From NCBI GenBank assembly GCA_036001865.1, contig DASYTX010000096.1:1-60176 (forward strand): a stretch of 60,176 nt of DNA, written 5' to 3'. The DNA is from Terriglobales bacterium. GTDB lineage: Bacteria; Acidobacteriota; Terriglobia; Terriglobales; Acidobacteriaceae. Within the stretch, counting starts at the first letter, position 1; the number at the start of each line of letters is the position of its first letter. A program made the translations under genes and the position numbers. The notes below the pieces were generated by a model. That model was not told the DNA's origin and did not search any database. It saw only the letters and a list, made by a program, of their open reading frames with translations. Below, one piece after another: positions 1,716 to 29,314 of the stretch.

Positions 1716-4130
1716 TCAGCTGAACCCGAGCCGGTGCATCAAGTCCTGGAACTTGGGGTCGGAGCGCATTGGATCAAACACGGGATCGACTTTCAAAAAA
1801 ACCAGCCTGCTGTCACGCTCTTCATGCGCGCGCTGCAGCCACTCGATTGCCTGTTGCCTGTCGCCGAGCTGGGCATAACCTTGCGCCAAGGTGTATGCGG
1901 GCACGTAACCTCGCTTGGAAAGCTCCTTCAATCCTTCCAGCCAGCTCTCCAGCACACCTTTGTAACCTGACACGGCATAGTCCTGACCGATGGAGGCTGC
2001 CAATTCCGGGTTTCCGGCCAGTGTCATGACCCGTTGCCGCTCGGCCACAGCCTCCTTGTACATCCCGCTTTGCGCGTACGCTGCCTCAAGCGCCCGCTGC
2101 GCTGGTACGAAGGTGGAGTCCATGTCGAGTGTCTTGCGTAGCTGTTTGATGGCCTCGTCGTATTGGCGGGTGAAGTAATACAGCTTGCCGAGTGTGGTGT
2201 TGATGAGGAGCGACATCGGCTCCAGCTCTTGTGCCCTCCTGAGCTCGCGACCCGCTTCTTCGAAGCGCCCCATCTTCAGGAGATAATCTCCATACCAGTG
2301 GTGGGCCGCCACCGAGTTGGGATTAAGTTCGATGGCTCGCCTGAACTCCTGTTCCGCCCCTGCCCAATCCCAATCGTAATGCTCCTTGACCAACGCCAAG
2401 GAGGTGTGCGCCTCCGCCAGGCGGTCGTCGACCCTCAGCGCCTCCGAAGCGGCAGACTTTGCCCGCAGCCAGGCATCCCTCGACGGAAGATACCCGGAAT
2501 CTCCCAGCAGCGTGTATGTGTCCGCCAGTCCGGCATAGGCCAGGGCGTAATTGGGGTCCTTCTGCGCCGCTTCGCGGAAATAATTGGCGGCCTTCTTCAA
2601 TCCGTCTTCCGTCGACCGGTTCCAGTAATACAGGCCCCGCAGATAAAGCTGGTAAGCTTCCGCGTTTTCGGTGTAGTGCTTGGTCAGGCGTTGCTTCTCC
2701 TCGACGGTCAGCTTCGGGCGCAGGTTTTCATAGATGTCCCTGACAATGGCTTCCTGCACCACCACCAAGTCGGAGAGCTTGCGGTTGTACTGTGCGCCCC
2801 ATATTTGCGATCCATCACCGACATTCACGAGGTCAACCTGAATATTCAGCGTTTCACCACGTTGCGTAACCCTTCCTACCAATACGGCCTCAACATCGAG
2901 GTCACGTCCGATCTTCTGTGGGTCGGATTGCTGCCCCTTGTAAATAAAGACGGCGCTACGGGACTTCACCCGCACGTTGGAAAGCTGCGCCAGGCTGTTG
3001 ATGATGCCTTCCGTGATGCCATCGCTGAGGTACTCCACATTGCCGTCCGTGCTCGCGTTGACAAAAGGAAGGACGGCGATCGACTGGATGCGTCCCGAGC
3101 CAAAGCCTCGCCACAGCCGTTCCCTAAGCCCGCCCAGGTTGAGGCCCAAGAGCAGCAGCAGGACCAGCATGCCCGCTGCCGTAGCCATGGCCGCGGTGCG
3201 CCGCCGGCGGCGCACCGCCGGTAACGGTGCCGAGGTCGCGGTCACACGTGCGGAATCACTGTCACGTTTGGCACGCTTCAAATCGGCGCGCAGCTCGGCC
3301 GCGGTCTGGTAGCGCAGCTCGCGGTTCTTTTCCATGATCTTGGTGACGATGCGCTCGAGTTCCACCGGCAGGTCAGGATTGAACCGCAGAATGGGCGCCG
3401 GGGCGCGATTCAGGATGGCATCGAAGATGACCGCCGAAGTGCTCCCCGTGAACGCCGGCTTGCCCGTGGCCATCTCGTACAGCACGGCGCCGAATGAGAA
3501 CAGATCAGTGCGCACGTCCAGTTCTTCTCCCCGTGCCTGCTCTGGCGACATGTAGGCCACGGTGCCCAGCGATACGCCCGTGCTGGTCAAGTTCTCCTCG
3601 GTGGTGCCGATGGTTGCCAAGGATGCGACGCCGACACCTTCGGCCACGCGCTTGCGGTCGGGCACTAGTTTCGCCAGCCCGAAATCCAACACTTTCGCCT
3701 GCCCACGGCGCGTTATAAAGATATTGGCGGGTTTGAGGTCACGATGGATGATCCCTCGTTCGTGCGCCGCGTCCAAGGCATCGGCCACCTGGATGCCCAC
3801 TTCCATGATCTGTTCGGTGTCGAGGCGGCTGTTGGCGGTGCGGTACTTCAGCGTCTCGCCTTCCAGGAACTCCATGCAAATGAAGGGCTGGCCCTCATGC
3901 TCGTCGACCTCGTAGATGGTGCAGATGTTGGGGTGATTGATGGCCGAAGCCGCGCGTGCTTCGCGCTGGAAGCGCTCCAGCGCCTGCCGGTCCCGCCATA
4001 GCTCTTGCGGGAGGAACTTGAGGGCCACACGCCGGCCAAGTCGGAGGTCTTCCGCCCGGTACACCACGCCCATGCCGCCGCCGCCCAGCTTTTCCTCTAT
4101 GCGATAGTGCGAAACCGTCTGACCGATCAT
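1716..4130 (-). CDS. Ser/Thr protein kinase with a transmembrane segment and C-terminal TPR repeats
   Basis: Hanks kinase motifs are present: [30 protein letters not shown] and SPEQ. A TM stretch ([18 protein letters not shown]) is followed by TPR-like repeats ([14 protein letters not shown], ..). Confidence 0.9.
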
Positions 4131-4520
4131 GGACGCAGAGGGGGCATGTTAGGCTCCCGCCGAGACGTAAGTCAACGCACTGCCACCTTCGCATCACAGC
4201 GCTAGCAATCGGGTGCGCGGATTTTCGGGTACTGGCGCCGCTATCATCCTTAAGCGTTGACTGCTGTTTCCTTCCAGGATGCAGGTGACGCGCCATTGCA
4301 AACTCGGATACCTTGTGATATTATCGTACCTTGATTGTATGTCTAGATGTAAACACCCTAGTTCGCCCCTTACTCCTTTATTTCCGGGATTTTGCCTCTA
4401 ACTCCTTCATATTGCGAGATCACTGCCACGATATCCCTTCAGCCCTGCGTAACTGTCCGCATTTTCAATCGCATCCAAACCGGGCCCCGGGGTGAGGGCC
4501 GGGCGTAAAATAACTCGGCT

Positions 4521-5357
4521 GTGGATGTCTACGAAGAACTCGTGAAGCTGCGCCGGGAAGGCCGCCGCGGGGCGCTGGCCACCATTGTCAACGTGCGTGG
4601 CTCCATCCCGTCGTTCCAGACCGCCAAGATGCTGGTGCGCGACGACGGTTCCATCGCCGGCACCATCGGGGGTGGCTGCGTCGAGGCCGAGGTCTGGCAA
4701 GTGGCGCGCGAGGTAATGGAATCGGAGAAGCCGCGCACTCTCAGCTTCAACCTCAACAACAATCCCAAGTACGACACCGGCCTGGTCTGCGGTGGCACGC
4801 TGGAAATCTTCATCGAGCCCATCCTGCCCATAGCCGTGCTTTACATCTTCGGCGCCGGTCACGTGGCGCTGAACCTCTACAAGGTCGCGCGCATTGCCGG
4901 CTTCGAAGTCGTGGTGGTGGACGACCGCGAATCTTACGCCAACCGCGAGCGCTTTCCCGAGGCGCAGGAGATCTATGCGGATGATTTCGACCACGCCATG
5001 GCGCAGATTGCGCCTAACGAGAACTCCTACCTGGTGATCGTCACCCGCGGTCACCATGACGACATGCGCGTGCTGCGCTGGGCCGTCGACACCGCGGCGC
5101 GCTACATAGGGATGATCGGCTCCAAGCGTAAGGTCATCGCTATCTATAAGGAGTTAGAGAAGGAAGGCATCCCGCGGCAGAAATTCGAACGCCTACATGC
5201 CCCCATGGGCCTCGACATCGGCGCCATCACCCCGGAAGAAATCGCCGTGGCCGTTGTCGGGGAGATGATCGCCATCCGCCGCCACGCCGAAGCGGCTGTG
5301 CCCGTCATGCGCTATTCGCTGGCCGAGCAGGCCGAGCCCACTCCCTCGACGGACTGA
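4521..5357 (+). CDS. XdhC/CoxI family molybdoenzyme maturation accessory protein
   Basis: N-terminal ..RRGALATIVNVRGSIPS..GGGCVE and a Rossmann-like IFGAGHVA..VVVVDDR match the XdhC_CoxI architecture. The start codon is GTG. Confidence 0.8.
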   Translation: MDVYEELVKLRREGRRGALATIVNVRGSIPSFQTAKMLVRDDGSIAGTIGGGCVEAEVWQVAREVMESEKPRTLSFNLNNNPKYDTGLVCGGTLEIFIEPILPIAVLYIFGAGHVALNLYKVARIAGFEVVVVDDRESYANRERFPEAQEIYADDFDHAMAQIAPNENSYLVIVTRGHHDDMRVLRWAVDTAARYIGMIGSKRKVIAIYKELEKEGIPRQKFERLHAPMGLDIGAITPEEIAVAVVGEMIAIRRHAEAAVPVMRYSLAEQAEPTPSTD

Positions 5358-5361
5358 CCCT

Positions 5362-5991
5362 TTGGCTCGCGCACCCAGCTTTTGTGGCGTGGTCCTGGCC
5401 GCCGGTGAATCTTCCCGCATGGGCCGTGACAAGGCGCTGCTGCCCTGGCCTCCTCGCAGCTCTGCTGGCTCCCAAGCCGGTACTTTTCTGTCGGGTGCGA
5501 TCCAGTTGCTCCAGCCGTACACGCAACTGGTGATTGTGGTCGCCGGCAAGAATGCCGATTCCATCAGCCCCGTCGTCTACGCCCACGGTGCTTTTCTCGC
5601 CGTGAACCGTGCTCCCGAGCGCGGCCAGTTCAGTTCTCTCCAGGTCGGACTCCAGGAGGTCCTCAACCGCGGGCGCGACGCCGCCATCGTGGCTCTGGTC
5701 GATCGCCCGCCTGCCCAGCCAAGTACAGTTGAGCTTCTCTGCCGGGCCTTCAGCGAGGCTGTTGAACGGGGGACGTGGGCAGTGATCCCCGAGTACGGCG
5801 GCAAGCACGGGCACCCAATTGTGGTGGGACGGGAGATGATCGAAGCCTTCCTCAAAGCTCCCCCCACATCCACCGCACGCGACGTGGAACATTCCCTGCA
5901 GCCGCGCATCGTTTACGTGCCCGTTGACGATCCTCCGGTGGTCGCCAATGTGGACACCCCCGAGGACTACGCCGCCCTGAAGATGCAATGA
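5362..5991 (+). CDS. MobA/MocA-like molybdenum cofactor nucleotidyltransferase
   Basis: The motif GVVLAAGESSRMGRDKALLPW is the NTP_transf_3 signature. The gene lies 4 nt after xdhC-like, and its stop overlaps the next start (ATGA). Confidence 0.75.
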   Translation: MARAPSFCGVVLAAGESSRMGRDKALLPWPPRSSAGSQAGTFLSGAIQLLQPYTQLVIVVAGKNADSISPVVYAHGAFLAVNRAPERGQFSSLQVGLQEVLNRGRDAAIVALVDRPPAQPSTVELLCRAFSEAVERGTWAVIPEYGGKHGHPIVVGREMIEAFLKAPPTSTARDVEHSLQPRIVYVPVDDPPVVANVDTPEDYAALKMQ

Positions 5992-6686
5992 CTTCTAGTT
6001 TCCGCTCCGCTGGCGACTTCATCCAGAGCGTGCTCGACCTGAAGCCGCGGGTCGCCGTCTTTGACTGCGATGGCACGCTGTGGTCGGGAGACGCGGGCGA
6101 GGACTTCTTCTACTGGGAAATCGATCGAAGGCTGCTGCCGCACGCAACCGCCAAATCTGCGCTATCCCGTTACGAGGAGTACAAGCGCGGCCAGGTCGCC
6201 GAGGAGCAAATGTGCGGGGAAATGGTCACCATCCACAAAGGTATCCCCGAGGAAAAACTCATACACGCCGCCGAAGATTTCTTCGCGGAGAAGGTTGCGT
6301 TGCGCATCTTCCCGCAGATGCAGGAGTTGATTATGGATCTGTGCGAGCGCGCCTGCCAGATTTGGGCGGTGTCGTCCACCAACGAATGGGTGGTACATGC
6401 GGGCGCGCGGCGGTTCGGCATCCCGGAGGAGCGGGTCCTTGCCGCCTGCGTGGAGAAAGAGAACGGCTGCGCCTCTAATCGCCTGCTGCGCGTTCCCACC
6501 GGCCAGGGCAAGGCGCAAGCTATCAACGAGAAGATTGGCGCCCCTGTAGACGTTGCCTTCGGCAACACCGTGCACGATGTCGCCATGCTTTCTCTCGCAC
6601 GCCACGCCTTCGCCATTGGCCCCGACGCCGAACTGGAAGAGCTTGCTCGCCTGCGCGGCTGGGTCATTTACCGCCCAGAAACCTGA
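5988..6686 (+). CDS. HAD-superfamily hydrolase (phosphoserine-phosphatase-like subfamily IB)
   Basis: HAD motif I is present as VAVFDCDGTLW, with a later ..VSSTNEW.. and a C-terminal FGNTVHDVAML (motif IV-like). The gene is translationally coupled to the upstream gene. Confidence 0.75.
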   Translation: MTSSFRSAGDFIQSVLDLKPRVAVFDCDGTLWSGDAGEDFFYWEIDRRLLPHATAKSALSRYEEYKRGQVAEEQMCGEMVTIHKGIPEEKLIHAAEDFFAEKVALRIFPQMQELIMDLCERACQIWAVSSTNEWVVHAGARRFGIPEERVLAACVEKENGCASNRLLRVPTGQGKAQAINEKIGAPVDVAFGNTVHDVAMLSLARHAFAIGPDAELEELARLRGWVIYRPET

Positions 6687-9700: not shown

Positions 9701-10719
9701 GGATCGAACCGGGAAGGGTGCGAGCGCCGGAGCTTGCGCGCGCGTGGTTGAATTCACCGCCGCTTTCGATGCGGCAGCTCCGTGGCAAGGTCGTGCTCAT
9801 CGACTTCTGGGACTACACCTGCGTCAACTGTATCCACACGCTTCCCTATGTCAAGGCCTGGCACGAGCGCTACCGGGATCATGGCCTTGTGGTGATCGGG
9901 GTGCACACCCCGGAATTCACCTTCGCCCAGTATGAGTCCAACGTTGAGCGCGGCGTACGAGAGTTCGATCTCACCTATCCCATCCTGATCGACAGCAACT
10001 TCGAAGTCTGGCAGGCCTTCGCCAACCGCTGCTGGCCGGCCAAGTACCTGATCGACTCCAACGGCTACGTACGCTACGCTCACTTCGGTGAGGGCGCCTA
10101 TCAGGAAACGGAAGCCGCTATCCAGGAGCTGCTACGGGAGATCAATCCTGCTGCGGAGTTGCCAGCGCTCATGGCGCCGCTGCGCGATTCCGATCGTCCC
10201 GGCGCAGTTTGCTTCTGCCCTACCCCGGAGCTTTATCTCGGCTACCGCCGGGGCCGGATCGGCAACCGCAGCGGCTTTGTCGAAGATCAATCGGCGAACT
10301 ATTCACTCGACGCTGAGCCAGAGGAGGGCGTCTTCTACGCCCACGGACGCTGGAGGTCAACGGCAGAGTTCTTGGGCGCTGACGAGGCCGGCGCCGGACT
10401 GGTGCTCAAGTATTCGGCGGCGGCGGTGAACCTGGTGATGTCGGCCCCACCCAACTCCACCTGCGAGGTGCTGGTCCGGCAAGACGGCCGTCCCCTATCC
10501 CGCGAACAAGCCACCGACGATACCAGCTTCCGCAACGATGAGAGCTATATCGTGGTGGACCAGCCCCGCATGTACTCCCTTATCGACAACCGTGACTTTG
10601 GCACGCACACCCTGGAGCTGCTCTGCCGGTCGTCCGGCGTGGCGGCGTTTGCCTTCACCTTCACCAGTTGCGTGGACCCGGAAGCCAGCCGGCTCTACGC
10701 CGGCTCCCAGGCGCGATGA
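9697..10719 (+). CDS. thioredoxin-fold (redoxin) protein with a DipZ-C-like extra C-terminal domain
   Basis: A CXXC motif occurs in FWDYTCVNCIHTLPYV, followed by VIGVHTPEF and WPAKYLID. The ATGA overlaps the upstream stop. Confidence 0.75.
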   Translation: MRIEPGRVRAPELARAWLNSPPLSMRQLRGKVVLIDFWDYTCVNCIHTLPYVKAWHERYRDHGLVVIGVHTPEFTFAQYESNVERGVREFDLTYPILIDSNFEVWQAFANRCWPAKYLIDSNGYVRYAHFGEGAYQETEAAIQELLREINPAAELPALMAPLRDSDRPGAVCFCPTPELYLGYRRGRIGNRSGFVEDQSANYSLDAEPEEGVFYAHGRWRSTAEFLGADEAGAGLVLKYSAAAVNLVMSAPPNSTCEVLVRQDGRPLSREQATDDTSFRNDESYIVVDQPRMYSLIDNRDFGTHTLELLCRSSGVAAFAFTFTSCVDPEASRLYAGSQAR

Positions 10720-11108
10720 AGCAGGTAGCAGCGGCTCTGATTCTCCGTGATGGCCAGGTGCTCATCTGCCAGCGCACGCGCTATCAGACCATGCCGCTGA
10801 AGTGGGAATTCCCCGGCGGCAAGATTGAACCAGGCGAACAACCCATTGACGCCCTGCGCCGCGAGCTGGAAGAGGAGCTTGGCATTGAAGCCCGCATCGG
10901 CGACGAGGTGGCGCGCATCCGCCACACCTACAAAGGCGGAAGCAACGTGCAGCTGCGCTTTTTTCTGGTCAACCACTTTGAGGGCGAGCCGGAAAACCGC
11001 ATCTTCCGCGACATCCAGTGGGTACCGCTGACCGATCTCGAACGGTTCGACTTTCTCGAAGCCGACCTCGAACTTGTCCGCGACCTGGCTGCGGGCAAGG
11101 TGCTGTAG
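10716..11108 (+). CDS. mutT: NUDIX hydrolase, MutT-type 8-oxo-dGTP diphosphatase
   Basis: The Nudix box reads GGKIEPGEQPIDALRRELEEELGI. The ATG at 10716 overlaps the stop of the upstream gene (ATGA). The longer track ORF from 10668 is less likely. Confidence 0.8.
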   Translation: MKQVAAALILRDGQVLICQRTRYQTMPLKWEFPGGKIEPGEQPIDALRRELEEELGIEARIGDEVARIRHTYKGGSNVQLRFFLVNHFEGEPENRIFRDIQWVPLTDLERFDFLEADLELVRDLAAGKVL

Positions 11109-11143
11109 AGCCTGCGCGCGCCCTGAGTTGAACACCGCTTTCA

Positions 11144-12403
11144 TCAGCCCCGCCCGCGCAGCGTCCAGAACCACAGGGCTACCAGTGCGATCATCACAAG
11201 CGTCGTCGCCCAAGTGACGATGTTGTAGGTCCGCGAGTTGACGTAATCGCCCATCAGGTCCTTCTTGTTCACCAGCAACAGCATGAAGACAAGCACAAAA
11301 GGCAGCAGAATGCCGTTAATCACCTGGGACAGCACGCTGATCTGGACGAGCGGCATGTCCGGCAACAGGATGATGCCCGCGCCCGCCGCCAGCAGACCGG
11401 TGTAAAGCCAGTAGAACACCGGCGCCTCGCGGAACTTCTTGTTCACCCCGGACTCGAACCCCATTCCTTCGCACACCGTGTACGCGGTCGAGAGCGGCAG
11501 GATGGAGGCTGCAAACAAGGAGGCATTGAACAGACCGGCGGCGAACAGAATGGAGGCATACTTGCCGGCCAGCGGGCGCAGCGCCTGGGCTGCGTCGGCG
11601 CCATCGCGGATCACGCGGTAACCGTAAGCGTGCAACGTGGCCGCGCAGGCTACCACGATAAAGCCCGCTACCAGTGGTGCGAATATGGCGCCGGTTATGA
11701 CGTCGATGCGCGACGCTCCGTACTGCCTCACCGTCACTCCCTTCTCGACGACTGAGGCCTGCAGGTAGAACTGCATCCAGGGCGCAATAGTGGCGCCGAT
11801 CATGCCGATGACGAGGTACAGATACGGAGGCTGGCGTAGGGTCGAGGGCGATGGCGGCTTCACCACGCTGAGCATGGCCTGGTTCCAGTCAGGCCGAGCC
11901 AGGAAGCCGGCAACGATGTAGGCGATGTAGAAAAAGGACGCCACCAGGAACACCTTCTCCACGCCCTTGTACGTTCCCTTCACCACGATCAGCCACACCA
12001 CTGCCGCAGCCAGCGGTACGGAGATGTAGCGGGAGACGCCGAACAGCTCCAGGCTGCTGGCCACCCCGGCGAACTCAGCCACCACGTTACCGAAGTTGGT
12101 CAGCACCAGGGCGGCCATCATCAAGAAGGTGATGCGCAGGCCGTATTCTTCGCGAATGAGGTCGCTGAGGCCTTTACCGGTGACCGCACCCATGCGGGCC
12201 GCCATCTCCTGGATCACGACCAGCGCAATAGTGGTGGGGACGAGCGTCCACAGCAGGGCATAGCCGAACTGCGCGCCGGCAGACGAGTAGGTAAAGATGC
12301 CGCCGGCATCGTTGTCCACGTTCGCTGTGATGAAGCCCGGGCCGACCACTGCCAGAAAAATCAGGATCCGGGTCTTCCAGCGCCTGCGCCATCTCTTCCT
12401 CAT
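11144..12403 (-). CDS. NRAMP/SLC11-family transporter with a non-canonical metal site (NRMT-like)
   Basis: The protein is 419 aa and polytopic. The TM1 region GPGFITANVDNDAGGIF aligns to MntH GPAFIAAIGYIDPGNF, so DPGN becomes DAGG. The TM6 region IGATIAPWMQFYL aligns to IGATVMPHAIYLH, so MPH becomes APW. Confidence 0.85.
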   Translation of the reverse strand: MRKRWRRRWKTRILIFLAVVGPGFITANVDNDAGGIFTYSSAGAQFGYALLWTLVPTTIALVVIQEMAARMGAVTGKGLSDLIREEYGLRITFLMMAALVLTNFGNVVAEFAGVASSLELFGVSRYISVPLAAAVVWLIVVKGTYKGVEKVFLVASFFYIAYIVAGFLARPDWNQAMLSVVKPPSPSTLRQPPYLYLVIGMIGATIAPWMQFYLQASVVEKGVTVRQYGASRIDVITGAIFAPLVAGFIVVACAATLHAYGYRVIRDGADAAQALRPLAGKYASILFAAGLFNASLFAASILPLSTAYTVCEGMGFESGVNKKFREAPVFYWLYTGLLAAGAGIILLPDMPLVQISVLSQVINGILLPFVLVFMLLLVNKKDLMGDYVNSRTYNIVTWATTLVMIALVALWFWTLRGRG

Positions 12404-12471
12404 TGCACCGTTCGGCTGCCGCCATTTTGCGGAATGAATCTATCGCGGACGGCGGCCCATTGCCTACTGCT

Positions 12472-13719
12472 TTACAGCTTGCTGCGCAACAGACTGATCA
12501 CGTCATCGGCGGTAATGATGCCGGTCAGCACGCCGTTTCCATCGATCACTGGTAGCGTCAAGAGGTTGTACTTGTCGAACAATTCAGCGACCTCTTTTTC
12601 CGATGCGCCCGCTGGGCAGGAAATCAGGGGCTCGGCCGCGAGCTCCGACAGCCGGACCTCAGGTCCGGCCAGCACCAGGGTGGTGAGCGGCACGGCACCG
12701 ACCAGCTTCTTGTTCTCGTCCACCAGGAAGATGGTACTGATGGTTTCGACACCGCCCTCGAAGTGGCGCAGGGCGTCGATGGCGTCGCGCACGGTGGCGC
12801 TCGGGGGCAGCGCGATGAAGTCCGTGGTCATGCGACCGGCGGCTGTGTTTTCGCGGAACTCGAGCAGCTCGGCGACTTCCTTCCGCTCTTCCGGCTCCAT
12901 TTCCTCGAGAATGACCTCCGAGGTCTCCTGGGGCAGATCGGCGAGCAGGTCGGCGGCCGCGTCCGGGTCCATCTCCTCGACAATGTCGGCGGCCCGGTCG
13001 GAGTCGAGCGACTCCACGATCGAGACCTGCAGTTTGGGATTCACTTCCTCCAGGGCCTCAGCCGCCACGTGCTCGTCCAGCGTCTCGAAGACAGCTTCGC
13101 GCTCGGCCGGCGCCAGTTCCTCGACGATATCGGCGATGTCAGCAGGGTGCAGCCGTGCCAGGCGTTCGTGGGCAATCTTCAGCTTCACGCGCCGCGCCGG
13201 GTCGGTCTCGATCAGGTCCACAAACTCCCAAGGGATCACCCTGGACGGGATCTTGGTTACGAGGGCGTTGATGGCTCGCGCCGGAACCACACCCTTCAGC
13301 AGGCGGCGCACCGCCCCGCGCGTCCCCACCTCGACGTCGCCGACGCTGAGCTCGAGATGATGGTTGGTGGTCTGCTGAATCAGATCCACGTCGTTGACGC
13401 GCACCACCTTGCGGCCGTGGACATCGATAATCTGCTGGTCCAGCAGGTCGCGCTCCAGCAGCAGCAGTCCTTCGCTGGCGCTGAACGGCTGCCAGTCGCT
13501 GGCAGGAATCGTGGCGTGCACTTTGAAGCCGTCCACGGTTTTGAGCGCCTGCGGCGGCACTACTCGGTCGCCGTGCCTGGTCTTGACGATGACAGCGGCG
13601 ATCCGACTGGGGTGGTCCTGGGGGCTGATGGCCAGTTCGCGCACACGTCCGCCCATCTTGCCGGTGGAGTCAATTACCGGCGAACCGAGCAGCTCCGACA
13701 ACGCAATCGCCGACATCAT
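12472..13719 (-). CDS. soluble MgtE-like regulatory protein: PRC-barrel(s), MgtE_N domain and a CBS pair, with no membrane domain
   Basis: PRC-like SELLGSPVIDSTGKMGGRVRELAI is followed by acidic helical MgtE_N repeats (ADIVEEL.., AADIVEEMDPDAAADLLADL..) and two CBS motifs. The protein ends ..GIITADDVISLLRSKL with no TM segment. The start is uncertain (ATG 13719 or TTG 13785). Confidence 0.8.
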   Translation of the reverse strand: MMSAIALSELLGSPVIDSTGKMGGRVRELAISPQDHPSRIAAVIVKTRHGDRVVPPQALKTVDGFKVHATIPASDWQPFSASEGLLLLERDLLDQQIIDVHGRKVVRVNDVDLIQQTTNHHLELSVGDVEVGTRGAVRRLLKGVVPARAINALVTKIPSRVIPWEFVDLIETDPARRVKLKIAHERLARLHPADIADIVEELAPAEREAVFETLDEHVAAEALEEVNPKLQVSIVESLDSDRAADIVEEMDPDAAADLLADLPQETSEVILEEMEPEERKEVAELLEFRENTAAGRMTTDFIALPPSATVRDAIDALRHFEGGVETISTIFLVDENKKLVGAVPLTTLVLAGPEVRLSELAAEPLISCPAGASEKEVAELFDKYNLLTLPVIDGNGVLTGIITADDVISLLRSKL

Positions 13720-13957
13720 TCCCGAGAATACCCAACTGCATGAAACTTTCCAATCGCTTCTCTGCGCCTGTGCTGCGGCCCGCAACCATCGTAGGGCGCC
13801 AGCCGATCCTTTGCCGCGCGCGGGTGCGCGTTTGACAATTCCCTGACCCGGCAGGCAAACTACCGATTCCCCGGCCCGGGCTCGCTACCGATAGGTTTAG
13901 CCCGCCGGCGTCAGGCCGCCGCCTGGTGTCCACAGCTTGGTGCACGATACCTTGAAA

Positions 13958-14455
13958 ATGACCGGAAACCGGGTCTCCTATACTCTCGAGTCGTCGCTGA
14001 CGAGCATTAATACCGCTGAGGAGACGGCACTAAAGATAGCGGCCCAGGCCGGCTTCGACGACGACGAATCGCAGAAGATCTCCATGGCGGTGCGGGAGGC
14101 CGCGGTCAACGCCGTGCTCCACGGTAATGCCTACGACCCCCAAAAAAAGATGACTCTGGCATTCGAGAGCACGGGCAACGCTCTGGTCATTACCGTCACC
14201 GATCAGGGGCAGGGGCTGGATCCCAATAACATTACCGACCCGCTGTCGCCGGAGAACTTGCTGAAGCAGTCCGGCCGGGGCATCTTTCTGATGCGCGCTT
14301 TCATGGACGAGGTCAGGATCCGCCCGCTCGATCCCAATAGCGACCAATCGGGAACCGAAGTCACCATGATCAAGAACGTCCGCGGCGAATCTGCGCAGCG
14401 GCCCGACGATGGCCGCGGCGGAGCCGCCGCCGGCGGCAAGGAGGCAGCCCAGTGA
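13958..14455 (+). CDS. anti-sigma regulatory factor, RsbW/SpoIIAB-type Ser kinase (HATPase_c)
   Basis: The N box is [14 protein letters not shown] and the G boxes are VTDQGQGLD and SGRGIFLMR. The start is ATG 13958, or possibly TTG 13937. Confidence 0.8.
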
Positions 14456-14799
14456 GCATGAAGAGCAGTACGCGGCAGGTGAATGGTGTGACTATCGTGG
14501 ACCTCAGCGGACGCATTACCCTGGGCGAGGGCAGCGTCGTTCTGCGCGACACCGTCCGCGAACTCGTCGGCAAGGGCCAGAAGAAGATTCTGTTGAACCT
14601 GGGCGACGTCACCTACATTGACAGTTCCGGGATCGGGGAACTGGTCAGCGCCTTCACCACGGTGCGCAATCAGGGCGGCGAACTCAAGCTGCTGAACCTG
14701 ACCAAGAAGGTGCATGACCTGCTGCAGATCACTAAGCTCTACACCGTCTTCGACGTGAAGGACGACGAGGCCGCGGCCGTCTCTTCCTTCGCCAAGTAA
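14452..14799 (+). CDS. STAS-domain anti-sigma-factor antagonist (RsbV/SpoIIAA-like)
   Basis: The motif [18 protein letters not shown] contains the conserved phosphorylatable Ser, and ..[17 protein letters not shown] is also present. The gene overlaps the upstream stop. Confidence 0.85.
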
Positions 14800-18094: not shown

Positions 18095-18445
18095 GGGGGC
18101 GTCACGGCTTCGACGGAGATGCTTGCGGCCGAGAGGCATGCCGGGGTGCACACACCCGTAATCGCGTGCAAAAACACAATTGCCAACACACAGCTGGCAT
18201 ACGCTGCTTAATTAGTTAAGTAGCCGTCCTCCGCGGCTTGGTCCGCGGGCTGCGGAAGGGCGTCGCACAGCGGACTGGTTCTGGACGCTACGCCTGGGCG
18301 TCCCGAACGAGACTTACGGGCTAGCGGTTCGCGTTTCTTGTCCGTTCTCGAGCGCGAGCAGCGAACCATGCGGAACGGAACAAGCATGTAGGCTCTTCGC
18401 CAGTAACATCTTCGGACCCGGGTTCAACTCCCGGCGCCTCCACCA
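18095..18445 (+). ncRNA. ssrA: tmRNA (SsrA)
   Basis: The 5' GGGGGCGUCACGGCUUCGACGG and 3' GGACCCGGGUUCAACUCCCGGCGCCUCCACCA form a tRNA-Ala-like acceptor with a G3:U wobble, a T-arm and an encoded CCA. The internal tag frame from GCA at 18168 reads AKNTIANTQLAYAA, with a TAA stop at 18210-18212. Confidence 0.92.
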
Positions 18446-29133: not shown

Positions 29134-29210
29134 TGGCGGGGACGACGGGACTCGAACCCGCGACCTCTGCCGTGACAGGGCAGCGTTCTAACCAACTGAA
29201 CTACGTCCCC
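29134..29210 (-). tRNA. tRNA-Asp (anticodon GTC)
   Basis: The reverse complement is GGGGACGTAGTTCAGTTGGTTAGAACGCTGCCCTGTCACGGCAGAGGTCGCGGGTTCGAGTCCCGTCGTCCCCGCCA. It folds as a cloverleaf with anticodon loop CTGTCAC, and the CCA is encoded. Confidence 0.95.
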
Positions 29211-29237: not shown

Positions 29238-29314
29238 TGGTGGGCAGTGAAGGACTCGAACCTTCGACCTCGTGCTTGTAAGGCACGCGCTCTAACCAGC
29301 TGAGCTAACCGCCC
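29238..29314 (-). tRNA. tRNA-Val (anticodon TAC)
   Basis: The reverse complement is GGGCGGTTAGCTCAGCTGGTTAGAGCGCGTGCCTTACAAGCACGAGGTCGAAGGTTCGAGTCCTTCACTGCCCACCA. The anticodon loop is TTACAAG, and the CCA is encoded. Confidence 0.95.

Follow-up and report, generated by a model that had tools for sequence, protein, structure and literature searches.

A minus-strand two-gene operon in the window, by which we mean the whole 60,176-nucleotide stretch of DNA analyzed here, encodes a soluble MgtE-like sensor followed by an NRAMP-related transporter. The pair is a further acidobacterial example of the mgtE-fragment/nrmT operon type published by Shin et al. 2014 (PMC4072509; PLoS Genet 10:e1004429). 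Our preferred reading, which we regard as somewhat probable, is an operon of this type in which the carrier more likely handles Mn2+ and the sensor regulates the carrier in trans. The sensor CDS (12472..13719, minus strand, as are all features given below) encodes 415 aa from an ATG at 13719 and comprises a PRC-barrel unit, a second beta module, MgtE_N and a CBS pair; the product lacks a transmembrane (TM) domain. An in-frame TTG at 13785 is an alternative start that would lengthen the CDS to 12472..13785 and the protein by 22 aa. Since homologues align from residue 22–24 of this long ORF, the ATG at 13719 is the likely start. A spacer of 68 nt (12404..12471) separates the sensor stop codon from the NRMT start codon, and the transporter CDS (11144..12403) encodes 419 aa from an ATG at 12403. 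The genes flanking the pair are on the opposite strand, and no paralogues of the sensor or NRMT gene were found elsewhere in the window.

The initial annotation described the upstream protein as the cytosolic module of MgtE without its pore, and profile searches supported this description. PRC (E 1e-5, above the gathering score), MgtE_N (PF03448; 1e-27) and two CBS domains (PF00571 twice; 1e-18) were matched by Pfam in the sensor, and Nramp (PF01566; 3e-100) in the transporter, while the MgtE membrane domain was not matched. The NCBIfam model TIGR00400 (mgtE) covered the sensor over profile positions 19–253 of 450 only, at 173 bits, which is below its cut-off of 232.75. Because this match stops at position 253, the MgtE membrane domain is absent from the sensor. 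Hydropathy on the Kyte-Doolittle scale peaked at 1.42 (19-residue window) and the protein therefore has no TM segment. A PDB sequence search matched the sensor to MgtE cytosolic domains at E values of 1e-26 to 1e-33, and an AF2 model (pLDDT 84.7) returned MgtE cytosolic domains as its best Foldseek matches (2YVY and 2OUX, ~1e-18). Against TtMgtE of Thermus thermophilus (PDB 2YVX, 2ZY9; cytosolic domain 2YVY, 8GPS, 8GPV, 2OUX), the N domain and CBS pair of the sensor aligned to residues 23–254 with an E value of ~1e-30. The sensor differs from MgtE in having an additional N-terminal PRC and PRC-like region, in lacking the TM domain, and in a plug helix that is cut after about 10 residues. The C-terminus reads ...DDVISLLRSKL, with the stop codon at approximately TtMgtE residue 256. 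The sensor is not an MgtE channel, as both the five-helix TM pore domain and the complete plug helix are missing. A frameshift hiding an MgtE pore was considered and ruled out, as had been expected from the short spacer: the sensor ends inside the plug helix, the next gene begins after 68 nt, no hydrophobic stretch is present, and more than 100 homologues share this length and architecture.

The ligand positions known from MgtE were compared site by site. The MgtE_N helical acidic repeats (12847..13152; Pfam) carry E221, D253 and D257 (415-aa numbering) as the equivalents of TtMgtE E59, D91 and D95. The sensor retains ligand equivalents of Mg4 (D91 and D247), Mg6 (D95) and Mg7 (E59), and these four positions were mostly still acidic in homologues at 30–38% identity. 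Both Mg5 ligands are replaced (D226 by Asn and D250 by Ser). The CBS pair (12475..12843) takes in about the first 10 residues of the MgtE plug helix before it stops, and the plug-helix sites Mg2 (E258) and Mg3 (D259) are absent. The ATP-site residues of the CBS domains, Y170, R187, D188, N203 and F227, correspond to T, T, T, A and L in the sensor.

The N-terminal region had been annotated as one or two PRC units. The first (13549..13713; residues 3–57 of the 415-aa sensor; PF05239) stands, as it scored 25.7–26.9 bits against a gathering cut-off of 21.2 and forms beta strands in the AF2 model. The second beta-rich module (13210..13470; residues 84–170) is PRC-like by the motif DLLDQQIIDVHGRKVVRVNDVDL and obtained no Pfam PRC call. 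When it was compared with the first unit the motif aligned in register, as a weak match (hhalign E 0.025, probability 2%). Residues 96–130 of this module are beta-rich in the AF2 model. Few parts of the sensor are as well conserved as this module, in which 32 of 87 columns are invariant compared to 7 of 80 in the first PRC unit, and whose VRVND block was invariant in homologues at 30–38% identity. For the N-terminal 190 aa, a PDB sequence search yielded no significant match, and its top hit, the reaction-centre H subunit, had an E value of 0.3.

The transporter is, by sequence comparison, a phylogenetic member of the NRMT clade with a variant metal site and is not a canonical MntH. In the PDB, the match to EleNRMT (7QIA) had an E value of 1e-113 (384 bits), compared to ~1e-34 for canonical MntH, and the bit scores to other SLC11 proteins were ~120 for DraNramp, ~74 for ScaDMT and 44 for NRAT. 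A neighbor-joining tree grouped the window transporter among acidobacterial proteins with the NRMT signature, which bears out the earlier placement outside canonical MntH. The best structural relative is EleNRMT of Eggerthella lenta (PDB 7QIA, 7QIC, 7QJI, 7QJJ; Ramanadane et al. 2022), aligned over residues 10–409, in which D55, G58, A227, W229 and Q379 correspond to D32, G35, A207, W209 and Q360 of the window protein. Direct translation confirmed the DAGG and APW motifs that had been reported for this gene 68 nt downstream of the sensor on the same strand. The helix-1 motif D32-A-G-G35 (12299..12310) has the DxxG of NRMTs, in which Gly replaces the Asn of the DPGN of canonical NRAMPs. The helix-6 motif A204-T-I-A207-P-W209 (11777..11794) carries Ala in place of the canonical Met, which is Ala or Thr in NRMTs, and W209 stands in place of the canonical NRAMP His in helix 6b. 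With canonical MntH/NRAMP proteins (DraNramp, ScaDMT, EcoDMT) the window NRMT shares the Pfam family, the LeuT fold, the helix-1 Asp and the common first helix-6 Ala, whereas Asn, Met and His of DPGN/MPH are Gly, Ala and Trp; because of these three replacements, we expect neither soft-metal selectivity nor proton coupling.

The first helix-6 position sets the window protein apart from the NRMT consensus, DxxG-TxxA/T, in which this residue is Thr. A204 aligns with EleNRMT T224, a side-chain ligand required for Mg2+ transport, and the resulting DxxG-AxxA signature is identical to the site of the EleNRMT T224A mutant, for which Mg2+ transport was not detectable and Mn2+ transport was retained (Ramanadane et al. 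2022). This third NRMT diagnostic position, the helix-6 Thr, had been overlooked in the initial annotation. The AxxA motif was rare, occurring in 4 of 80 related genome loci and in 4 of ~100 readable cluster representatives (the query counted among the 4). Most acidobacterial relatives carried TxxA. Thr was also the residue in most sensor-paired relatives, so the pairing of sensor and NRMT does not in itself depend on Ala.

The pairing had been put forward as one not known to be characterized, a view that does not survive the literature. Shin et al. 2014 reported that most NrmT genes adjoin a gene for a homologue of the MgtE cytoplasmic domain, proposed feedback regulation of NrmT by this MgtE-like partner, and tested an acidobacterial pair, Acp2976/Acp2977 of Acidobacterium capsulatum. 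As in the window, that pair belongs to an acidobacterium, has no M-box, and places the gene for a pore-less MgtE cytoplasmic homologue directly 5' of a co-oriented gene for an NRMT-clade NRAMP. The A. capsulatum transporter behaved mainly as a Mn2+ importer (PMC4072509), which fully rescued a Mn2+-uptake mutant and rescued a Mg2+ mutant at millimolar Mg2+ only; co-expression of the partner gave no added rescue of the Mg2+ mutant. The window pair comes from a different member of Terriglobia and has the rare AxxA helix-6 motif. The partner was called "small" by Shin et al. 2014, and an N-terminal extension of ~190 aa with a PRC barrel was not mentioned. Partner proteins are not discussed in the EleNRMT structural paper (Ramanadane et al. 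2022).

An alternative substrate assignment is Mg2+ alone: the two polypeptides would form one dedicated system, the MgtE-like protein responding to Mg2+ in the cytosol and controlling the gate of an SLC11-fold carrier for this ion; this was the reading of the initial annotation and also the first hypothesis of Shin et al. It is consistent with the NRMT-clade membership, the DxxG motif and the Met-to-Ala replacement of the transporter, with the Mg4, Mg6 and Mg7 ligands kept in the sensor, and with Mg2+ transport by EleNRMT (Ramanadane et al. 2022) and by the NrmTs of Clostridium acetobutylicum (PMC4072509). An M-box, which a subset of mgtE-fragment/nrmT operons carries and which does not define the type, precedes the operon in many Firmicutes (PMC4072509), and in one relative (L056) we found an M-box of 115 bits immediately 5' of the sensor-NRMT pair. 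Against this reading, neither an M-box nor any other Rfam riboswitch was found in the window at the gathering score or at E ≤ 10, and 32 of the 33 scanned sensor-containing relatives gave no M-box. A nhmmer search with the L056 M-box matched itself alone, and this probe was too insensitive. Two further points argue against a Mg2+-specific system, which we consider unlikely: the window protein has Ala where EleNRMT has the Thr that it needs for detectable Mg2+ transport, and the A. capsulatum transporter behaved mainly as a Mn2+ importer, with a partner that gave no better Mg2+ rescue. On the same three grounds (the T224A-type site, the missing M-box and the A. capsulatum orthologue), the label "Mg2+ transporter" is weakly founded for the window NRMT; we regard it as doubtful and not warranted.

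The region upstream of the pair (13720..13936) is common to the sensor gene and a divergent HATPase_c_2/STAS gene pair; it contained neither an Rfam element nor a sigma-70 consensus promoter. Scans for promoters, terminators and operators (10900–14100 and 13700–13960) likewise gave no sigma-70 consensus, terminator-like matches at chance level, and one weak palindrome.

The adjacency of sensor and NRMT is conserved and not obligatory, and its predicted persistence in relatives was borne out. Of 80 NRMT-centred genome loci, 45 had a co-oriented sensor gene upstream and 35 had no sensor within 5 kb. Among 71 informative sensor-centred metagenome loci, 56 contained an NRMT, which in 55 cases followed the sensor in the same orientation; the median gap was ~140 nt. 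The other 15 had unrelated genes instead. A sensor partner of 414–421 aa also adjoins NRMTs that are just 33–44% identical to the query. No natural sensor-NRMT fusion was found among the top 150 cluster representatives, the longest of which was 562 aa.

These distributions bear on a second alternative, that the two genes are co-inherited neighbors with no direct physical coupling and that the PRC-MgtE_N-CBS protein is a general regulator of cation or energy status acting on other targets. Several findings would fit such a regulator: sensors without an NRMT and NRMTs without a sensor are each common, the published co-expression test was negative, and the sensor no longer has the ATP site that MgtE CBS domains typically possess. 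Same-strand adjacency nevertheless holds down to 33% NRMT identity, often with gaps of 0–20 nt or overlapping genes, the M-box of L056 covers both genes, and no recurrent substitute partner was found at sensor-less NRMT loci or NRMT-less sensor loci, whose neighbors were mutually unrelated. We therefore judge mere co-inheritance to be quite improbable. The least probable alternative, also raised by Shin et al. (PMC4072509), is a metal chaperone or buffer that takes cations from the carrier and passes them on and is not a gate; the very acidic helical repeats with several carboxylate sites kept and the loss of the gate-transducing plug helix are compatible with it, but MgtE-type sites are regulatory and of low (millimolar) affinity, a poor fit to buffering of trace Mn2+, the tested NRMT functions alone in heterologous hosts, and many NRMTs have no adjacent partner, which makes this role very unlikely.

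Returning to the preferred reading of a sensor-regulated carrier, the NRMT-clade protein would, by analogy with EleNRMT, import small divalent cations without proton coupling. Mn2+, perhaps with low-affinity Mg2+, is more likely than Mg2+ as its physiological substrate, because the DxxG-AxxA site equals that of EleNRMT T224A; this comparison draws on one point mutant of EleNRMT, which is itself only roughly half identical to the window NRMT. We infer that divalent cations of the cytosol most likely bind to the sensor between its N domain and its CBS pair. The cation-bound form would then shift its conformation like the MgtE cytosolic domain and, through physical contact, would regulate the carrier in trans, probably as negative feedback. 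Since the plug helix is missing, any such coupling must use another surface; the strong conservation of the second beta module makes it the leading candidate. The M-box in front of the sensor-NRMT pair in L056 favors a link to divalent cations. The sole experiment on an acidobacterial pair saw no effect of the partner, which speaks against the proposal. A bolder version, which we offer as speculation and hold to be unlikely, is that the sensor is a trans-acting, detachable, cation-dependent gate on a LeuT-fold carrier, docking by the near-invariant second beta module with the VRVND block instead of a plug helix, and that a natural Thr-to-Ala replacement retuned the pair from Mg2+ to Mn2+ homeostasis in the small lineage to which the window belongs.

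In the literature searched, one negative co-expression experiment is the sole test of the role of the MgtE-like partner of NRMTs since 2014, and the window pair leaves that picture unchanged. Three observations should be useful to later work. The partner keeps the inter-domain sites Mg4, Mg6 and Mg7 alone, without the plug-helix sites, the ATP site or Mg5. Its second N-terminal beta module is near-invariant down to 30% identity and is thus an obvious candidate docking surface. In a small clade that includes the window protein, the T224A-type site with which EleNRMT lost detectable Mg2+ transport occurs naturally. If both the trans gate and the Thr-to-Ala retuning were true, these pairs would constitute a natural experiment on the co-evolution of transporter selectivity and a borrowed sensor.

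The sensor gene, which encodes a soluble protein with PRC, MgtE_N and paired CBS domains, and the NRAMP gene downstream are read as a two-gene operon, since the flanking genes lie on the opposite strand. These are a NUDIX gene (10668-11108, +), convergent with the NRAMP gene, and an HATPase_c_2 and STAS gene pair (13937-14799, +), divergent from the sensor gene. The pair corresponds to an RsbW-like anti-sigma kinase and an anti-sigma antagonist, and has 217 nt of upstream region in common with the sensor. The sensor ORF spans 12472..13785 (-) from a TTG start, with an in-frame ATG at 13719, the start used in the initial annotation. Homologues align to the long ORF only from residue 22-24, so 13719 is the likely start, giving a product of 415 aa. 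A spacer of 68 nt separates it from the NRAMP ORF (11144..12403, -; 419 aa). All peptides previously quoted from the locus were found in the sequence, and the DAGG and ATIAPW motifs of the NRAMP were verified by direct translation. The window also holds a tmRNA gene (18095-18445, +; 173 bits) and two neighbouring tRNA genes (29137-29210 and 29241-29314, both -), which have no relation to this finding.

The sensor had been described as an MgtE-type protein without the MgtE membrane domain, and the domain searches bore this out. The Pfam matches were MgtE_N (1e-27), a pair of CBS domains and PRC, which exceeded its gathering score; the NCBIfam mgtE equivalog covered profile positions 19-253 of 450 only, at a score below its cut-off, and 19-residue hydropathy windows gave no membrane helix (maximum 1.42). 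The nearest solved structures by sequence were MgtE cytosolic domains (1e-26 to 1e-33), which were also the best Foldseek matches (~1e-18) of a confident AlphaFold2 model (55 homologues, mean pLDDT 84.7). The model places two N-terminal beta-rich modules before the MgtE_N helical repeats and the CBS pair. The second beta module received no Pfam call and matched the first weakly (hhalign E 0.025), with the motif in register. Invariant columns made up 32/87 of this module vs. 7/80 of PRC1, and its LL..DL.D.QI.D..G...VRVND block was invariant among partners of NRMTs (NRAMP-related transporters) 33-43% identical to that of the window. Distant partners, 30-38% identical to the window sensor, end in a short basic tail, which may contact the membrane or the carrier. 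In two distant homologues (L161:2735-4000 and L163:2722-3984) it is ~14 residues long (e.g., VIPTAWKRRLPRIYSRSGS), whereas MgtE has its acidic plug helix at this place. The window sensor ends in LLRSKL, which is basic and shorter than these tails.

The sensor was aligned with HMMER to the MgtE cytosolic-domain structure 2YVY, and the alignment was checked on seven marker isoleucines, of which the sensor keeps five and has conservative replacements at two. By the ligand assignments for Thermus thermophilus MgtE (PMC5882242), the sensor keeps E59 (Mg7), D91 and D247 (Mg4) and D95 (Mg6); D226 and D250 (Mg5) are Asn and Ser. The plug-helix ligands E258 and D259 (Mg2, Mg3) are absent, the sensor ending at about residue 256 of that protein, and the plug-helix route for passing on domain closure cannot operate here. 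All five ATP-site residues (Y170, R187, D188, N203, F227; PMC5529423) are replaced. MgtE-type ligand positions are mostly still acidic in the distant partners.

The NRAMP matched the Eggerthella lenta NRMT (EleNRMT, PDB 7QIA) at 1e-113 over residues 10-409, vs. ~1e-34 for canonical MntH and 1e-10 for plant NRAT, which upholds its earlier placement outside canonical MntH with an NRMT-like site. EleNRMT residues D55, G58, A227, W229 and Q379 correspond to D32, G35, A207, W209 and Q360. The NRMT site has been defined as DxxG-TxxA/T (Ramanadane et al.), whereas DxxG-AxxA is found in the window protein. In EleNRMT the corresponding mutation, T224A, left Mn2+ transport in place at a higher Km; Mg2+ transport was undetectable and Mg2+ did not compete. 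The helix-6 Ala is real and lineage-specific: it occurs in 4/80 related genome loci, which group with the window in a neighbour-joining tree. Among ~100 readable representatives of 50%-identity clusters, helix 6 carried TxxA in 34, TxxT in 28, TxxS in nine and AxxA in four, the query included. One distant representative (P0200, L168:259-3263; 41% identity) has AxxA and no MgtE-like partner; its gene follows that of a PAS-HisKA sensor kinase after 5 nt, with peroxiredoxin and ferritin genes nearby. In helix 1, ~18/80 acidobacterial relatives (L001, L002, L005, L006, L009, L013, L016-L018, L024, L030, L035, L038-L040, L072, L059, L065) have D-A-N-G or D-P-N-G instead of D-A-G-G, which preserves DxxG, the Asn standing one residue before its place in canonical DPGN.

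Conservation of the adjacency was confirmed in both directions. Across 80 NRMT-centred genome loci (66-74% identical; almost all from Terriglobia or elsewhere in Acidobacteriota), a full-length sensor lay upstream on the same strand in 45, and none was present within 5 kb in 35. Apart from one clade of ~14, loci without the sensor are spread across the tree, and their upstream genes are unrelated; this suggests that the pairing is ancestral and was repeatedly uncoupled. Among 80 sensor-centred metagenome loci, an NRMT lay directly downstream in 55 (median gap ~140 nt) and in another arrangement in one; in 15 no NRMT followed although at least 400 nt were available downstream, and the remaining nine were uninformative. 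Six distant NRMT representatives (33-44% identity) were also examined: in three, a (PRC+)MgtE_N+CBS gene of 414-421 aa runs up to or into the start of the transporter gene. Nine NRMT-less loci with at least 2 kb downstream (L098, L100, L107, L114, L118, L128, L131, L141, L153) encode full-length PRC-MgtE_N-CBS proteins followed by mutually unrelated genes. The sensor thus also exists as an orphan, which may have other targets. The family is very large (at least 8,000 candidates scored, all significant), and its best 120 matches are all ~413 aa (386-453). Public annotations of relatives include "CBS domain-containing protein", "sporulation protein YlmC with PRC-barrel domain" and [quoted passage not shown].

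No Rfam family was found upstream of the window operon, even at E<=10. In an acidobacterial MAG (L056), a full-length M-box (RF00380, 115 bits; 3450-3634, +) precedes both the sensor gene (~3717-4946) and the NRMT gene (5001-6239). It was the only M-box among 33 sensor-containing loci scanned, so within the group the magnesium tie is real for a minority only, and the L056 lineage may be an Mg2+-dedicated subset within Acidobacteriota. This fits Shin et al., in whose view dedicated Mg2+ import is confined to a subset of NrmTs (PMC4072509). Acido-Lenti-1 sRNA motifs (gathering score 37) were seen at L038:10439-10484 (+, 48.9 bits) and at L026:3341-3390 (+, 38.8 bits); the L026 motif precedes the sensor gene by ~150-200 nt and is on its strand.

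The pairing had been put forward as one not known to be characterised; it was in fact published by Shin et al. in 2014, who named the NrmT group, reported a gene for an MgtE cytoplasmic-domain homologue next to most nrmT genes, speculated that the partner serves [quoted passage not shown], and tested one acidobacterial pair, A. capsulatum Acp2976/Acp2977, which is without an M-box (PMC4072509). That transporter rescued an Mg2+-transport mutant only at low-millimolar Mg2+ and fully rescued an Mn2+-uptake mutant; co-expressing the partner made rescue no better (PMC4072509). MgtE as a partner is unmentioned in the EleNRMT structural paper and in Cellier's 2022 review, and the other NRMT-citing papers retrieved were off-topic. 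The window locus is almost certainly another member of this published mgtE-fragment/nrmT class. The initial interpretation of a sensor gating an NRAMP-fold Mg2+ transporter in trans is supported in part, without its novelty or a secure Mg2+ assignment. The T224A-type site, the absence of an M-box and the A. capsulatum result point towards Mn2+ for the window copy, and we somewhat favor Mn2+, possibly with low-affinity Mg2+, over Mg2+ as its substrate. Regulation of the carrier in trans through cation sensing has close to an even chance. By the most likely mechanism, the sensor would bind cytosolic divalent cations at its kept inter-domain acidic sites and would thereby regulate an otherwise unregulated, uncoupled carrier, perhaps with its conserved second beta module as the contact surface. 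Against such regulation stand the negative result for the single acidobacterial pair tested and the occurrence of each gene without the other. The value of the locus lies in drawing attention to the NRMT partner protein and in providing a natural metal-site variant (AxxA).
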